A DNA stretch of 35,774 nt from IMG/VR virus record IMGVR_UViG_2534681674_000025. One strand, 5' to 3'. The notes under the pieces are model-generated. The model had not been told where the DNA came from, did no database searches, and saw only the letters and a program-made list of their open reading frames with translations. The position numbers and the translations under genes were made by a program. This document shows positions 1 to 21,391 of this stretch, one piece after another. The first letter of the stretch is position 1; each line of letters opens with the position of its first letter. The stretch comes from a virus. Lineage: Duplodnaviria; Heunggongvirae; Uroviricota; Caudoviricetes.

Positions 1-1002
1 TTACCCTCTATTGTCAAAAGGGTTCAATTCAACAGCAGCCTCTAAATGACCTGGAGCAAAATGCGCATAACGCATAGTCATTTTTATATCGCTATGCCCC
101 AGTATTTTTTGCAACACAAGAATATTTCCGCCCCGCATCATAAAATGACTGGCAAACGTGTGACGTAGCACATGAGTTAATTGCCCATCAGGAAGCTCGA
201 TCTTCGCTCTCTTAATTGCAGCGTCAAAAGCCTCATAACATGGTGAAAATAGCGCTCCTCGTTTTTTAGGAAGCATAGCCTGCAATTGAGGTGAAATCGG
301 TACAGTGCGGTTCTTCTTTCCTTTAGTTTTAACAAATGTGATTCGACCGGGCAGTACTTGAGATTGCTTTAATCCTTCTGCTTCACTCCACCGAGCACCC
401 GTCGCAAGCCCAATACGGACAACAACCCCCAAATCTTTATTCCGTGACTCATCACACGCAATCAGAAGGCGTTCAATCTCATCTACATACAGAAACGCCA
501 GTTCCTTTTCTTCCTCACGAAACTTGCGAATACCAGTCAGGGGGTTTTCACCAGACCACTCCCCAAGGCGCTTCAGTTCGGCAAAAACAGCATGTAGATA
601 TGACTGCTCGCGATTAACGGTTGCTTCACTAAGTTTTTTCTTCCCCTTGGGATTCCATTCTCCTGATAGCCTTCTTTCCCGATAAGTAGCAAACATATTT
701 TTGTCAAACTGAGAAGCAAATGGATCTCCCAGCCTGGAACAAATCGCCTCAAGTTTGACTTTGCGCTCTGCACCAGAGGACAAGGTTTTACCGTACATCT
801 CAAACCAACGAGCAATCAACTCAGAAAGACGAGGACCAGAACCATCTTGAAACTCGTCTCCAACTCTACTATTCATTAAACGGCGCTCATAAGAGAGCGC
901 CTCACTTTTTGTCGCAAACTGTTTACGAATGCGTTTTCCCGATGCCCCGTAGGGATAACATTCGCAAAGCCATTTACCTGATGGAATCTTACGAACCGAC
1001 AT
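1..1002 (-). CDS. int: Tyrosine recombinase / phage integrase (333 aa)
   Basis: C-terminal catalytic region HVLRHTFASHFMMRGG...LGHSDIKMTMRYAHF with the R..H..R..Y signature of tyrosine recombinases; sits at the prophage edge next to the repressor region as in P2. Confidence 0.93.
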   Translation of the reverse strand: MSVRKIPSGKWLCECYPYGASGKRIRKQFATKSEALSYERRLMNSRVGDEFQDGSGPRLSELIARWFEMYGKTLSSGAERKVKLEAICSRLGDPFASQFDKNMFATYRERRLSGEWNPKGKKKLSEATVNREQSYLHAVFAELKRLGEWSGENPLTGIRKFREEEKELAFLYVDEIERLLIACDESRNKDLGVVVRIGLATGARWSEAEGLKQSQVLPGRITFVKTKGKKNRTVPISPQLQAMLPKKRGALFSPCYEAFDAAIKRAKIELPDGQLTHVLRHTFASHFMMRGGNILVLQKILGHSDIKMTMRYAHFAPGHLEAAVELNPFDNRG

Positions 1003-1007
1003 TTTAG

Positions 1008-1355
1008 TTACTTATCACATAAATCAAATGCAGCCTTAGTGACATCCCCCAGACTCTTTTTTAACCCTGGGGCGGCATCATTATCTAGCCAAAATGGATT
1101 ATTGTTATCTAACGGTAACGCACCAAATGTTTTACCTTTTATTCGAGCCAAACCTGTAAGTGCATATAACTTATTATCGTCAAAATTCATCACATAAGGA
1201 TTACCATCAAGACACTGTAATTGAACCTCATCAGTATTAAATGGCCATACCCCATTGAAACTCTCACGTTCAATAGTTTTAAAAGGCATTGCGACGGCGG
1301 AAAAAGAAAACATAGATAAAAAAGTAACTAATAGTTGAACCTTTTTTACTTTCAT
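1008..1355 (-). CDS. Secreted periplasmic protein, DUF2511/YebY-like (115 aa), cargo
   Basis: N-terminal signal peptide (MKVKKVQLLVTFLSMFSFSAVA), two conserved Cys, DNNNP motif recalled from YebY-like proteins; RBS GAGGTAA upstream; local AT-rich composition. Confidence 0.6.
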   Translation of the reverse strand: MKVKKVQLLVTFLSMFSFSAVAMPFKTIERESFNGVWPFNTDEVQLQCLDGNPYVMNFDDNKLYALTGLARIKGKTFGALPLDNNNPFWLDNDAAPGLKKSLGDVTKAAFDLCDK

Positions 1356-1384: not shown

Positions 1385-2035
1385 TTACAAATTAAAAAAC
1401 GCCCTAGAAATGACACCGCCTACCAAAACCCCTACGCAGATAAAGAATATTATTTCTTTTGGATAAAGTCGGATTAATTCTGAAGCACGAAGTCGGACTT
1501 CTGGTAAGGTCGAACTCTCTGTGTGGCTTGATGCCGATTGTTGCTCTAACCACGACAATGCAGACTGTAACTGAGAACGAGTAAGATCGTTTAAACGTCC
1601 TGTACCGAAATTGATATGGCAATACCGCAGAAGTTTTTGTCGAAGTCCACAGTCTTCACTGTTACGTAGTAATAAACTTACAAGAGCCTTACAGGCATCA
1701 TGATCTTTACATCGCTCAAGCATTGCATGCAGAAAACTCTCCGCTGTTTTATATTGATTTACTGTCATATCATCAATACCAGCTACACCAATCTCCGCAT
1801 GTACTTTTTGCCAAATAATAAACGCTTCAGTATTGCTAGCTTCTGCAATAGCAGCAACCAAGCTATTTAGCTCCTTACGCTGAGCCTTAAGCAAAGGGCG
1901 ATCGTCATCATCATTATTCGAAGGGATTGCGATATTGACGGTCTGAGAACCATCATATCGCTCTATCTGAATATTCTTTTCGTGAAAATCACGCCCAGCA
2001 ACGCGATTGTTTGAACCGTTTGAGTTGACGGCCAT
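1385..2035 (-). CDS. Hypothetical C-terminally membrane-anchored protein (216 aa), cargo
   Basis: Complete ORF 15 bp downstream of the repressor gene; single C-terminal hydrophobic helix (IIFFICVGVLVGGVISRAFF); N-terminus shares the motif NNR[IV]AGRD[FY] with the repressor C-terminus. Confidence 0.7.
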   Translation of the reverse strand: MAVNSNGSNNRVAGRDFHEKNIQIERYDGSQTVNIAIPSNNDDDDRPLLKAQRKELNSLVAAIAEASNTEAFIIWQKVHAEIGVAGIDDMTVNQYKTAESFLHAMLERCKDHDACKALVSLLLRNSEDCGLRQKLLRYCHINFGTGRLNDLTRSQLQSALSWLEQQSASSHTESSTLPEVRLRASELIRLYPKEIIFFICVGVLVGGVISRAFFNL

Positions 2036-2050
2036 GTCACCTCCCTACTA

Positions 2051-2455
2051 TCACCTACCCTTAGTTTCGTTATAGTCACGACCAGCGATACGGTTATTAC
2101 CACCAGAAATATTTAACTCACGTCCTGATGGCTGAGTTTCCTTTTCACTGATCGCACCTTTTAAAGCCCCAATCACCGCATTTTTCACATCTAACGAAGC
2201 TGCTCGAAAGCGAGTAATCAACTCCTGCTCATCATCGTTATAAGTTTCAGGTGAGTGAATTCCCAACACAACATACTGAACATCAAGGCCAAAACGAGAC
2301 AGCGCTGCCAAATACGCAGCATCAGGAAAGCTATCTCCTTTCTCATATCTAAGCTGAGTTAGCTTTTTGACTCCACCAATGTCGCTCATGGCAACTTGAC
2401 TAAGTCCCAATCTTTCCCTTTCCTCACGCAACCGCTGACCAATATCATTTTTCAT
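2051..2455 (-). CDS. XRE-family helix-turn-helix immunity repressor (C / CI analogue, 134 aa)
   Basis: N-terminal HTH (QRLREERERLGLSQVAMSDIGGVKKLTQLRYEKG); divergent from the early operon across a promoter/operator region, as P2 C is from cox. Confidence 0.85.
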   Translation of the reverse strand: MKNDIGQRLREERERLGLSQVAMSDIGGVKKLTQLRYEKGDSFPDAAYLAALSRFGLDVQYVVLGIHSPETYNDDEQELITRFRAASLDVKNAVIGALKGAISEKETQPSGRELNISGGNNRIAGRDYNETKGR

Positions 2456-2530
2456 ACAAAAACCTTGACAGGTATCTTTTTTGATACCAAAATGATTTCA
2501 CGAGCTATTAGATGATCACAATATACCACT
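2456..2530. promoter_or_regulatory. Divergent early promoter/operator region (lysis-lysogeny switch)
   Basis: TTGACA (2465-2470) followed 17 nt later by CAAAAT (2488-2493) on +; perfect inverted repeat GGTATC-N6-GATACC (2471-2488) overlapping the spacer, a likely operator. Confidence 0.45.
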
Positions 2531-2737
2531 ATGAAACAAGTTCTTCACGATACCAGATCACGCATTCCGCGTAACACCGCCACAGGTCCAAGACTGGCAC
2601 TTCGGCTGTCCCTCGAGGAGCGAGCCGTCATTGATGAAATGGCAGCTAAAGAACAACGCTCATCCTCTAACATGGCGCGCATGATCTTCCTTCGCGGCCT
2701 AGAGCTAACCCAGAAAGAACAAAACAAATCTTCCTGA
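2531..2737 (+). CDS. Small ribbon-helix-helix-like DNA-binding protein (68 aa), first gene of early operon
   Basis: RLALRLSLEERAVIDEMAAKEQRSSSNMARMIFLRGL fits a beta-strand/helix/helix RHH pattern; position equivalent to a Cro/Cox-type early regulator. Confidence 0.55.
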   Translation: MKQVLHDTRSRIPRNTATGPRLALRLSLEERAVIDEMAAKEQRSSSNMARMIFLRGLELTQKEQNKSS

Positions 2738-2753: not shown

Positions 2754-2957
2754 ATGTCAGGTATAACCATCAATATCAATGTGAATGCCCCCTATGTATC
2801 CCTGCAGAAATATGCAGAGATAACAGGTATCCCTCTTAATACATGCAAAAAGATGTTGGCTGACGGTCGAATTATTATCCGACCCAAACGCGCCAAAATG
2901 GAAAAGCCTGAAGTAAACCTTGTGGCGATGTTAAAAGACGCTTTGGCTAACAGCTAA
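2754..2957 (+). CDS. Cox/Apl-like HTH excisionase-regulator (67 aa)
   Basis: YVSLQKYAEITGIPLNTCKKMLADGRI resembles the P2 Cox HTH region as recalled; RBS GGAGG before the ATG. Confidence 0.55.
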   Translation: MSGITININVNAPYVSLQKYAEITGIPLNTCKKMLADGRIIIRPKRAKMEKPEVNLVAMLKDALANS

Positions 2958-19372: not shown

Positions 19373-19514
19373 CCCACCCACATGGGGAAACCTCGGAATA
19401 TGGGGCGACCGCCTTCTGGATGCACTGGAAACCTGTAACGCGGATAAACGGGCCATTGCTGAACTGGATAAGAGAATAGCCGAACTGACACACCAGACGG
19501 GAGTAACACAATGA
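19233..19514 (+). CDS. o-spanin lipoprotein (Rz1/LysC-like, 93 aa) overlapping the i-spanin in another frame
   Basis: Lipobox LLTGC after a short signal sequence; proline-rich mature region; overlapping arrangement as in P2 lysB/lysC. Confidence 0.6.
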   Translation: MNAPTLCLTLVLLTGCAGTQNAPRPAPSVRLIPQTLTMPVTPPPFPDPPTWGNLGIWGDRLLDALETCNADKRAIAELDKRIAELTHQTGVTQ

Positions 19515-21391
19515 CCAGTAAGAACTTTGCACTGATTACAGCCATGACACAGGCTGAACTGACCCGGAAAGTGAATGAATATCTTGCGAAGGGGTGGCAT
19601 CTTCAGGGGGACACACGGGTAGCTTACGAGCCCGGCACCCCGTGGTATCTCATGCAGGCCATGGTGGCCGATGGTGCCACCGAGACGCCCTCTGAGCCAT
19701 TACCAAACAACAAGACGCCGGAATGGTACTACGTGGTTGTGCTTGCCGGGCAGTCCAACGGCATGGCTTACGGTGAAGGGCTTCCGTTACCGGATTCTTA
19801 CGATGCTCCGGATCCGCGCATTAAACAGCTGGCGCGCCGCAGTACGGTACCCCCGGGTGGAGAGGGTTGTACGTATAACGACATCATCCCGGCTGACCAC
19901 TGTCTGCATGATGTGCAGGATATGAGTACGCTGAATCATCCGAAGGCGGACCTGAGCAAAGGTCAGTACGGCTGTGTGGGACAGGGACTTCATATTGCCA
20001 AAAAACTACTCCCGTATATCCCGAATAACGCGGGGATCCTGCTGGTACCATGCTGTCGTGGTGGTTCGGCATTCACTCAGGGCGCGGAGGGAACATTCAG
20101 TACGACCACGGGGGCCAGCCAGGATTCGGCGCGCTGGGGTGCGGGTAAGCCGTTATATCAGGACCTGATCGCACGCACCAAAGCGGCATTACAGAAGAAC
20201 CCGAAAAATGTGTTGCTGGCGGTGTGCTGGATGCAGGGCGAATTTGACATGAGCGCTGCCACCTACGCACAGCAACCGGACCTGTTCACGGCCATGCTGA
20301 AGCAGTTCCGTACTGACCTTTCCGGATTTAACGCGCAGTGCCATGGCGGCAGTGCTGCAGTTATACCGTGGATTTGTGGCGACACGACGTATTACTGGAA
20401 AAACACATACGGCACACAGTATGACTCCGTCTACGGCGCGTACAAAAACAGGGAGAGCGACAACGTTTTCTTTGTGCCGTTCATGACCGACGGTAACGGC
20501 AACAACACGCCCACCAACTTACCGGCAGAAGACCCGGATATTGCTGATGCAGGTTATTACGGCGCGCAATCCCGTAGTAATGGTAATTGGGTATCGTCAA
20601 ATCGTCCGACACATTTCAGTTCATGGGCACGCAGGGGCATTATTTCGGATCGCCTGGCAACCGCTATTCTGAACGCAGTTGGTCGAACCAGCGCCTTCAT
20701 CAGCGGTACCGCACCGGAAATCAAACCCTCGCCCGGCGGCGACACTCCATCGGGGCCGTCTGATGGTGACACATCCGTTCGTACAGTCTCCCTGCTGCCG
20801 ACAGCCGGAGAGGCTGCTGCGCAGGGCTGGACCATCACCGGCGGCAGTGTTGCGCTGGAAGATGGTGTGTTTAAGGTTACCAAGCAGAGCAATAAAACTT
20901 GGTCCCTGATGCATCCGGTGGATGACGCAGTCTCCCTGCTGACACGGGGTGGCAGACTGAGCTGTAAGTTTCGACTGTCAGGCGCACTGACCAACAACCA
21001 GTTCGGTCTGGGAATTTATCTGTATACCGATGTAGCGTTACCTGACGTCGTGGCGATGACCGGGACTGGTAACCCGTTCCTGATGTCGTTCTTCACCCAG
21101 ACCACAGACGGCAAACTGAATCTGATGCATCACAAGAAAGCCGGAAACACAAAGTTGGGCGAGTTCGGGAATTACAGTAACGACTGGCAGACGCTGGAGC
21201 TGGTGTTCACCGCCGGCAGTGCCACGGTTACTCCGAAACTGAATGGAGTGGCTGGCCCGGCATTCCAGGTCATAAAAGACAGTCTGACACTGGGGCTGAA
21301 TGCGCTGACGTTAACTGATATCACTAAAAATGCCGCGTACGGCGTCGATATCGGCAGCCTGGTGCTGGAAATCAATAATCCCGCAGTATAA
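19511..21391 (+). CDS. NanS-p-like O-acetyl esterase (DUF1737 + SASA/SGNH hydrolase domains, 626 aa), moron
   Basis: N-terminal DUF1737-like segment (AMTQAELTRKVNEYLAKGWHLQGD); SGNH-type catalytic motif VLAGQSNGMAYGEG; architecture of prophage-encoded NanS-p esterases of enterohaemorrhagic E. coli as recalled. Confidence 0.8.
   Translation: MTSKNFALITAMTQAELTRKVNEYLAKGWHLQGDTRVAYEPGTPWYLMQAMVADGATETPSEPLPNNKTPEWYYVVVLAGQSNGMAYGEGLPLPDSYDAPDPRIKQLARRSTVPPGGEGCTYNDIIPADHCLHDVQDMSTLNHPKADLSKGQYGCVGQGLHIAKKLLPYIPNNAGILLVPCCRGGSAFTQGAEGTFSTTTGASQDSARWGAGKPLYQDLIARTKAALQKNPKNVLLAVCWMQGEFDMSAATYAQQPDLFTAMLKQFRTDLSGFNAQCHGGSAAVIPWICGDTTYYWKNTYGTQYDSVYGAYKNRESDNVFFVPFMTDGNGNNTPTNLPAEDPDIADAGYYGAQSRSNGNWVSSNRPTHFSSWARRGIISDRLATAILNAVGRTSAFISGTAPEIKPSPGGDTPSGPSDGDTSVRTVSLLPTAGEAAAQGWTITGGSVALEDGVFKVTKQSNKTWSLMHPVDDAVSLLTRGGRLSCKFRLSGALTNNQFGLGIYLYTDVALPDVVAMTGTGNPFLMSFFTQTTDGKLNLMHHKKAGNTKLGEFGNYSNDWQTLELVFTAGSATVTPKLNGVAGPAFQVIKDSLTLGLNALTLTDITKNAAYGVDIGSLVLEINNPAV

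Follow-up and report, generated by a model that had tools for sequence, protein, structure and literature searches.

A repressor tail and a membrane protein head share a motif

The window analysed here is the whole 35,774-nt stretch of IMG/VR virus record IMGVR_UViG_2534681674_000025, a P2-like prophage that is 97.9% identical to Escherichia phage 520873 (Peduoviridae, Xuanwuvirus) over positions 1000-2800. Its minus strand carries, in order of increasing coordinate, int, a DUF2511 gene, a gene for a 216-aa membrane protein (here called the partner) and a gene for a 134-aa XRE-type immunity repressor (Table 1). The repressor ends ...ELNISGGNNRIAGRDYNETKGR (stop), and the open reading frame (ORF) that follows 15 nt on begins MAVNSNGSNNRVAGRDFHEKN. 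Residues 114-130 of the repressor (LNISGGNNRIAGRDYNE, the tail motif) and residues 3-19 of the partner (VNSNGSNNRVAGRDFHE, the head motif) are identical at 10 of 17 positions and positive at 15 (E=2e-5, BLASTP, single comparison). A first-pass annotation of this DNA had described the shared motif correctly throughout, and the span that it assigned, 1985-2110, covers both cores because the motifs sit at 2066..2116 and 1979..2029. A degenerate DNA pattern for NR[IV]AGRD[YF] has exactly two sites in the 35.8-kb window (1985-2008 and 2072-2095, both on the minus strand) and none in 100 shuffles of the window.

The two copies are 87 nt apart and in direct orientation. Codons coincide at just 4 of the 10 identical residues and the aligned 51 nt are 59% identical, which agrees with the many synonymous differences already remarked on in the core; in most of the motif classes described below, conserved residues are encoded by differing synonymous codons more often than by identical ones. 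A DNA-level repeat or recent duplication is thereby ruled out. Codon divergence, taken together with conservation in the homologues of both proteins, upholds the earlier view that the motif is conserved as a peptide.

Rather than being absent from related proteins, the motif is kept in the homologues of both. Residues S5, G7, N10, R11, G14, D16 and E19 are invariant across 28 homologues of the 216-aa protein (~60-96% identical, Enterobacterales), with M-x-V-N-S-x-G-x-x-N-R-x-A-G-R-D-[FY]-x-E at the extreme N-terminus. Across 27 repressor homologues R122, R126, D127 and E130 are invariant and the linker before the motif varies, and close homologues have at their very C-terminus ..INVSGxGNR[VI]AGRD[YF][NH]ExKK, preceded by a variable linker of Ser, Ala and Gly. 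Judging from these alignments, purifying selection acts on both copies.

The tail motif leads, in most classes, into a short end rich in Lys and Arg, which is TKGR in the window (2054..2065) and NENKK, GKGKKRK, NKKNK or RRRKTK elsewhere. This end could be an aggregation gatekeeper, or could make a membrane or DNA contact.

In the AlphaFold2 (AF2) monomer model, the repressor consists of an XRE-type helix-turn-helix (HTH) domain (residues 1-65), two helices (74-106) and a disordered tail (105-134), and the predicted local distance difference test (pLDDT) score of the tail motif is below 50. Matches to Pfam HTH_31, HTH_19 and HTH_3 are weak and under the cut-offs. The protein does match PHROG 8 'transcriptional regulator' (2.5e-14, the best among the repressor families PHROG 8, 4 and 3), and an N-terminal HTH encoded by a gene near int and divergent from the early lytic operon is the arrangement of an XRE/CI-type prophage immunity repressor. 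No Peptidase_S24 domain was found in the 134 residues by Pfam, the HTH being followed by just two helices and the tail, and the protein is thus not an autocleaving repressor of the LexA/lambda-CI type, which carries that peptidase at its C-terminus. PADLOC returned only weak HTH-level RmrA and control-protein matches for the repressor, which does not belong to a catalogued defence system.

The partner model has a confident helical domain (45-172) and a C-terminal transmembrane (TM) helix (192-215), and pLDDT is below 50 for residues 1-40. The head lies in this disordered N-terminal stretch of ~40 residues, which continues with further beta-prone segments (NIQIERYDGSQTVNIAIPS). PF27202 (Flk_N) is precomputed on nearly all partner homologues, including the 99%-identical P0001, which places the partner in the Flk_N family. 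It also belongs to PHROG 5825 (function unassigned), and PHROG 6521 is among the further matches, these families being annotated 'membrane protein' or unassigned. Sub-threshold Pfam matches to zf-P11 and ELYS were judged not meaningful. PADLOC gave no match for seven partner or third-gene proteins.

The motif pair recurs and co-varies among phage lineages

Forty distinct repressor/downstream pairs were retrieved from IMG/VR loci by HTH-domain homology alone, with no selection for the motif. Similarity between each tail and the head of the next gene product was compared with a null formed from the N-termini of other ORFs within the same loci, with the 99th percentile as threshold, and it exceeded this threshold in 36 of the 40. 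Among the four exceptions, L004 and L070 look matched by eye, L045 has a start-codon miscall, and the partner in L072 is truncated. Four further classes looked up from the repressor side (one in P. aeruginosa, two in metagenomic Mu-like phages and one marine) were all matched. Prediction in the other direction, from partner heads found in an exhaustive search to the tail of the upstream repressor, held in both cases, L324 and L325, where tail IIHGDVGIVAEGDVI accompanies head VVHGDVGQTVKGNVTI and tail EIKGDVGNVVSGSVNIT accompanies head VIHGNVMGNVIKGNVTV. A genome-wide scan with a DNA pattern gave mostly chance out-of-frame matches, and the in-frame terminal matches with a neighbour in the retrieved stretch (L244, L268, L272, L274, L295, L304 and L318) were all paired.

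The pairing spans Mu-like and P2-like prophages of gamma- and beta-proteobacteria and includes cultured phages. In Pseudomonas phage B3 the ORF18 tail is GISVTGDGNRTAGRDFHERKE and the ORF20 head VNIEVTGSNNIVAGRDFIENH; in BcepMu the gp17 tail is QEQVFHGSVGQAVKVEG and the gp18 head KQEFNKPVGQAIQAGE; and in KS10 the gp13 tail is MVASGSGITQVGSRV and the gp12 head MSASGFGIIQVAGDL. A Mu-like prophage of Pectobacterium has tail QIFNGDISGQFAGNQIINN and head QEFNGTAQGQFSSRDIINI, another class has KQTFHGSVGQSVAGNVTN and SQDFHGGVGQAAAGDINN, and a Gilliamella pair has QIINGSVNGQISAGNIYNN and QNFNDRVEQVAGENIINV, the partner there being a 2-TM protein without Flk_N. Conversely, the gene next to a tail-less relative of the repressor (P0224, from a P2/186-like E. 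coli prophage) has no head motif. The partner family has 92 representatives at 50% identity, and the full-length, phage-sized ones mostly start with a head motif, either in the general form Q-x-F-x-G-x-V-G-x-V-A-x-G-D-[IV]-x-N or in the AGRD variant of it. Flk-like proteins of 330-410 aa occur among the distant representatives. The recurrence is thus strong, and answers positively the question raised in the first-pass annotation, whether the pairing is found in other prophages.

Spacing of the two genes varies. In one P2-like prophage (L324 1595..1861) an 88-aa gene separates the tail-bearing repressor from the head-bearing partner, so strict adjacency is not required, and L104 and L163 have a 116-nt gap. 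A Salmonella enterica contig (L198 767..2801) carries three tandem XRE repressor paralogues followed by one Flk_N partner, whose head is of the AGRD type; the AGRD tail is intact in two paralogues and decayed in the third (..ISDARNISDTGNNENK). Two long repressor homologues, P0206 and P0179, were considered as possible repressor-partner fusions and proved to be tandem-HTH proteins.

A scan of IMG/VR for the AGRD-class DNA pattern showed that one motif pair connects varied repressor N-domains with varied partners. Four or more kinds of N-terminal domain on the repressor side and four or more partner types are joined by the tail and head motifs. The repressor domains include the RLREERERLG family, MGTYLPIGERLAEERKRLGFNQ.., ..HLRLREELDRVGLK.., a CI-like form with ..LLRLKEHLGLETDKEVAELLG.. 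and longer proteins of 200-256 aa. Partners have Flk_N and a TM anchor, Flk_N with a TM segment and a periplasmic Cys domain, a Zn-ribbon (CPxCE..CxxC) with two TM segments, or plain 2-TM architecture, and 140-aa 2-TM proteins and 233-aa Flk_N proteins were also seen. Almost all have at least one TM segment by a simple hydrophobicity criterion. What partners share is only the head and membrane anchoring, and what repressors share is only DNA binding and the tail. As different domains are joined by the same pair of motifs, contact between motif and motif is favoured over recognition of a domain such as Flk_N by a motif.

One subclass of partners is bitopic (L086 2863..3645, which is BcepMu gp18, and L056, L069, L070, L071 and L079). 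These have a conserved C-terminal segment, C.F.G..Y..G..I......D..C, after the TM segment; it is presumably periplasmic and may be a sensor domain.

At least 15 motif classes were distinguished. They vary by phage lineage, and tail and head change together: distant repressor homologues carry other G/N/Q-rich tails, and the genes downstream of them begin with the corresponding variant. The summed score of cognate pairs over 15 classes was 623, and none of 200,000 random re-pairings reached it, the maximum being 535; an earlier test with 10 classes gave 0 of 100,000. Two classes occur within one host genus, Pectobacterium (L002 vs L041/L092). Tails and heads differ systematically, with ..SGxG[NH]R.. 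in tails and ..GxxNR.. in heads, and the AGRD core hardly varies among Enterobacterales, Pseudomonas and Burkholderiales. Recurrence and co-variation between lineages support the functional coupling of the two co-transcribed proteins that the first-pass annotation had proposed.

Operon layout and other features of the prophage

No terminator-like site was found at 900-2800, hence none among the four leftward genes, and int, the DUF2511 gene, the partner gene and the repressor gene probably form a single lysogenic operon, as C-int does in P2. Divergent from the repressor, the plus strand carries the Arc-like and Cox-like genes, a DUF4761 gene and the gpA replicase gene. The candidate early promoter is the only good sigma-70-like site between the repressor and Arc-like genes. 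The gene that follows the partner encodes a lipoprotein or secreted protein in about half of the loci and is otherwise variable cargo. Because it varies among related phages it is not a fixed part of the module, and the census of third genes rules out a conserved third component.

Table 1. Features of the repressor/partner region, with coordinates in the window.
Feature	Position	Strand	Basis
P2-type tyrosine integrase, last gene of leftward operon	1..1002	-	Int_N 5e-32, Phage_integrase 2.5e-22
Third operon gene, 115-aa DUF2511 protein, signal-peptide-like N-terminus	1008..1355	-	PF10709 2.3e-6, PHROG 2950
Partner, 216-aa tail-anchored membrane protein (head motif, Flk_N helical domain, C-terminal TM)	1385..2035	-	PF27202 on homologues, PHROG 5825, AF2
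C-terminal transmembrane anchor of partner, residues 192-215	1391..1462	-	AF2 helix, hydrophobicity window
Helical Flk_N-type domain of partner, residues 45-172	1520..1903	-	AF2, Pfam on homologues
Head motif VNSNGSNNRVAGRDFHE, partner residues 3-19	1979..2029	-	BLASTP, homologues, AF2
Intergenic spacer, 15 nt, with GGGAGG ribosome-binding site (Shine-Dalgarno) at 2040-2045	2036..2050	-	Read from sequence
Immunity repressor, 134 aa	2051..2455	-	Pfam HTH (weak), PHROG 8, AF2; divergent from Arc-like/Cox-like genes
Tail motif LNISGGNNRIAGRDYNE, repressor residues 114-130, then basic end TKGR	2066..2116	-	BLASTP, homologue alignments
Imperfect inverted repeat, 19-nt arms (2444-2462 / 2478-2496), candidate operator	2444..2496		Consensus match
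Promoter-like TTGACA-17-CAAAAT, overlapped by the inverted repeat, candidate early promoter	2465-2493	+	Consensus match only
Arc-like gene	2531..2737	+	Annotation of Escherichia phage 520873
Cox-like gene	2754..2957	+	Annotation of Escherichia phage 520873

The stretch 1000-2800 was found in 525 of 5,426 complete E. coli genomes (~10%), many O157:H7 strains among them. In the deposited sequence of Escherichia phage 520873 (NC_049344.1 / CP025923.1 2459..3065, L001) the partner gene is unannotated and aligns in three pieces (93.8% identity), and the integrase is likewise split into two coding sequences. Either frameshifting sequencing errors or a decayed copy would account for these breaks.

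Three further features lie elsewhere in the window. Directly after the gpA replicase gene, 7927..8886 (+) encodes a 319-aa ParM/StbA actin-like segregation ATPase (PF06406 9e-82, PF21523 8e-69), a plasmid-type partition motor that is unusual cargo for an integrating phage. An IS3-type transposase (rve, HTH_21) at 9935..10915 (+) adjoins an apparent portal gene fragment at 11745..12386 (-), whose 213 aa cover profile positions 97-294 of 321, and the prophage may be defective via insertion of this insertion sequence. In the late region, 19511..21391 (+) encodes a 626-aa protein of DUF1737, sialate O-acetylesterase (SASA) and DUF6645 domains, NanS-p-like as in prophages of enterohaemorrhagic E. 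coli.

Possible roles of the paired motifs and comparison with known systems

P2-like and Mu-like phages with small XRE repressors that lack a RecA-cleavable domain have a poorly understood exit from lysogeny, and a peptide connector specific to each lineage, joining repressor to membrane protein, would be a concrete way for the cell envelope to act on the genetic switch. The tail and head motifs probably bind each other directly. The disordered C-terminal tail and the disordered cytoplasmic head would be the two halves of a homotypic connector and would bind via beta-strand stacking, each motif contributing one strand-turn-strand-turn-strand rung (INVS-GxG-NRVA-GRD-YNE), as in a beta-solenoid or in amyloid signalling motifs. 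The lysogeny repressor would thereby be physically coupled to the inner membrane. A membrane or envelope cue would lead the partner to cluster and its heads to nucleate the fold; repressor tails would then be recruited or templated into the partner assembly, the repressor would be drawn off its operators and the early promoter would fire. Templated assembly would supply the irreversibility needed for commitment to lysis. Control of the switch independently of SOS appears the most likely use, because the repressors have no LexA/CI-type autocleavage domain and many partners have periplasmic domains.

Taken as a whole, this chain of a homotypic beta-type connector, clustering on an envelope cue and SOS-independent inactivation or sequestration of the repressor is the explanation that we tentatively prefer. 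Its parts differ in strength. A signal passing from the membrane protein to the repressor is possible, and is put forward with some reserve. That the tail-head assembly is cross-beta or prion-like in nature is doubtful. Rather unlikely is the most specific form, a prion-like switch of Mu-like and P2-like phages in which the head of a membrane sensor nucleates a cross-beta fold and converts the repressor tail, leading to irreversible sequestration and lytic commitment without SOS. The suggestion in the first-pass annotation that the membrane protein modulates the repressor as a tether or decoy survives as part of the connector explanation.

Several observations weigh against the connector. The partner belongs to no family of known function in PHROGs or PADLOC, no repressor-partner fusion ('all-in-one', Rosetta stone) was found, and the motif core of ~17 aa is shorter than a typical bacterial amyloid signalling sequence (BASS; ~25 aa). 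The cognate was strictly top-ranked in only 6 of the 15 classes, because some classes are related (the FHGxVGQ group), and stood among the top two in 12. Within the AGRD class, residue-by-residue co-variation is weak and reaches significance only in the N-terminal flank, from position -9 to -7; as the core is invariant, the co-variation evidence rests on differences between classes, and co-variation within this class was discarded as support. Charged residues (R, R-D, E) also occupy matching positions in tail and head, and in-register parallel cross-beta stacking would place like charge on like. Since one operon makes both proteins in the lysogen, an unregulated interaction would titrate the repressor constantly, and an extra control step must be assumed. 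Finally, the interaction between tail and head is a prediction from sequence.

Signalling in the reverse direction is unlikely. The membrane protein would then be the effector, as a toxin or an abortive-infection or superinfection-exclusion factor, and would be controlled by the repressor tail. Either the tail would cap the head and block its self-assembly while repressor is abundant, in an antitoxin-like and addiction-like manner, or repressor oligomers would nucleate partner assembly, as a NOD-like receptor (NLR) does for HET-S or Bell. Such a role would suit partners that are small membrane proteins without enzymatic domains, several with two TM segments like holins or small toxins, and in known amyloid signalling systems the effector is the protein that acts at the membrane. 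Exclusion or moron genes are also common downstream of prophage repressors, and the third gene here is often that of a lipoprotein. In the type II toxin-antitoxin layout, too, the gene for an HTH protein precedes that for the protein which it neutralises, and a weak MqsA-type HTH match was seen. However, the known switched effector carries the C-terminal motif and its trigger the N-terminal one, whereas here the N-terminal copy is on the membrane protein. No toxin, holin or defence family was found in the partner with Pfam, PHROGs or PADLOC, and with no toxin family the pair does not classify as a type II toxin-antitoxin system. Among relatives of the Flk_N domain only Flk has been studied, and its role is regulatory and not toxic; the 525 E. 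coli genomes retain the partner and show no sign of the decay that toxicity would drive.

It is improbable that the tail is primarily the repressor's own element for higher-order oligomerisation, used in cooperative or looping operator binding, with the head capping or breaking oligomers or buffering free repressor at the membrane and no templating. Heads would then have no need to track tail class from lineage to lineage, and many repressors should have a tail but lack a partner with a head, which was not seen (36/40 loci matched, and the tail-less P0224 has a head-less neighbour). Nevertheless, small repressors need oligomerisation for cooperativity and this one has only two helices (74-106) after the HTH; in L198 three tandem paralogues share one partner and two keep the tail; and systematic differences between tails and heads are as expected if tail-tail and tail-head contacts are not equivalent.

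Recognition of both peptides by a third factor (a host protease or adaptor, a chaperone, a membrane-targeting factor or another phage protein), which would make them a shared degron or address, is very improbable. Disordered terminal peptides are typical degrons, the C-terminal tail of the Mu repressor governs its degradation by ClpXP, and a near-invariant AGRD core over Enterobacterales, Pseudomonas and Burkholderiales would suit a conserved receptor. On the other hand, at least 15 divergent classes, two of them in Pectobacterium, stay matched within pairs, no conserved third gene accompanies the pair, and known ClpX or Tsp C-degrons are unlike the K/R-rich ends of the repressor tails. The shared binding partner and the common host degron raised in the first-pass annotation are accordingly disfavoured, as diverged classes remain matched within pairs even inside one genus and partners with unrelated domains share only the head. 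The chance that the motifs have no function, as a relic of local duplication or a recombination junction or as a by-product of a DNA or RNA element across the gene boundary, is negligible: the copies do lie 87 nt apart in direct orientation, but they are only 59% identical with saturated synonymous differences, they are among the most conserved segments of both proteins, and the pairing persists over Mu-like and P2-like phages with different flanking domains while the classes co-vary.

The module occurs in ~10% of complete E. coli genomes, O157:H7 among them, and two model phages, B3 and BcepMu, have it as well. If the connector explanation is true, the logic of amyloid-signalling gene pairs extends past NLR/cell-death systems and multicellular bacteria. 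In its prion-like form, if true, this would be the first amyloid signalling module to act on a transcription factor and on the lysis-lysogeny decision, with motifs widespread in unicellular bacteria. The connector would also give at least 15 naturally orthogonal short peptide pairs, which are possible specific protein-protein connectors.

Known systems resemble the pair in different respects. Flk, a flagellar regulator and tail-anchored inner-membrane protein of Salmonella and E. coli, has Flk_N (PF27202) and a C-terminal anchor as the partner does. However, Flk proper is ~330-410 aa long with two Flk_N stretches, begins MQP(L/V)SGPG.. with no head motif, and is encoded on the chromosome with no repressor neighbour. 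In the RseA/sigma-E (anti-sigma), Mlc-PtsG and PutA systems, transcription factors are sequestered at the membrane and an envelope or transport signal controls hold and release. The likeness lies in a cytoplasm-facing membrane protein that holds a soluble regulator, and a periplasmic domain is present in some of the partners here, which are bitopic; the interfaces in those systems lie between folded domains, with no matched terminal peptides and no phage repressor. In lambda cI-rexA-rexB, as here, the gene of a membrane protein is co-transcribed with the repressor in the lysogen, and the rexA-rexB products in turn influence the choice between lysis and lysogeny (Thomason et al., bioRxiv 10.1101/2021.04.19.439022; PMC11077077). 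That system differs in having no common peptide motif, and its proteins are of unrelated families, RexA being a soluble DNA-binding protein and RexB a polytopic membrane protein.

No publication was found, a 2026 review of amyloid switches included, that links amyloid signalling or matched terminal motifs to phage repressors. The statement in the first-pass annotation that this is not a described module therefore appears correct for repressors, but it missed a close paradigm, the amyloid signalling pairs HET-S/NWD2, BASS and Bab/Agp. BASS1-10 are found in gene pairs for a Bell-domain protein and an NLR in Actinobacteria and Cyanobacteria (Dyrka et al., bioRxiv 10.1101/2020.01.06.895854). They are reported almost only in multicellular members of these phyla and are described as ~25 aa long, rich in Q, N, G, V and I, poor in K, P and L, and with conserved G/N/Q and charged residues (10.1101/2020.01.06.895854). 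Relative to the rest of the same proteins, the repressor and partner motifs are enriched in N (x3.2), G (x2.3), I (x1.8), Q (x1.4) and V (x1.35) and depleted in L (x0.11), K (x0.32) and P (x0.36), in agreement with the bias reported for BASS and for beta-helical proteins. BASS1-like motifs may contain ..VVQ[AG][GR]D[IV].G.., which is a lead only. The composition is thus that of an amyloid signalling motif (ASM), the core length of 17-24 aa lies at the short end, and the layout also agrees, with the motif at the C-terminus of one product and the N-terminus of its neighbour's in the window, in 36/40 loci and in 15 classes. Several heads include a second GRD-type segment (L036 ..AGRDFHEKNITTDNFISRDFVNI.., L050 and L054, and BcepMu gp18 ..VGQAIQAGEANIADRSVNIRAGSIGSVAGRDIVNVN..), and the window head is followed by beta-prone NIQIERYDGSQTVNIAI with no clear repeat.

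As in BASS and in the fungal prototype HET-S/NWD2, a terminal motif is common to the products of adjacent genes, at the C-terminus of one and the N-terminus of the other; many motif families are matched within the pair, in an otherwise disordered terminus; and one member of the pair acts at the membrane. The domains are different. No NB-ARC, NACHT, Bell, TIR or CHAT domain was found in the repressor and partner proteins with Pfam, PHROGs or PADLOC, and where BASS and HET-S/NWD2 pair an NLR with a Bell/HeLo pore-former, here an XRE HTH prophage repressor that binds DNA lies upstream of an integral membrane protein (Flk_N/TM, Zn-ribbon/TM or 2-TM). Unlike in those systems, the N-terminal copy of the motif is on the membrane protein. 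The pairs described here further differ from BASS in belonging to phages of unicellular Proteobacteria, in the core of ~17-24 aa and in the lack of all-in-one fusions among those seen. Bab/Agp (BASS11) is an abortive-infection pair from the defence island of an E. coli prophage, and establishes that amyloid signalling works in E. coli (Ibarlosa et al., bioRxiv 10.1101/2024.11.07.622273). Like the present pair, it consists of adjacent prophage genes with a common terminal motif. It joins a TPR-GreA/B-C-PIN sensor (Agp) to a small pore-forming-like effector (Bab), and T5 infection leads to cell death, whereas here one partner is the lysogeny repressor itself. The repressor/partner pair would best be filed with the matched-motif gene pairs of amyloid-signalling type, in a new functional context.

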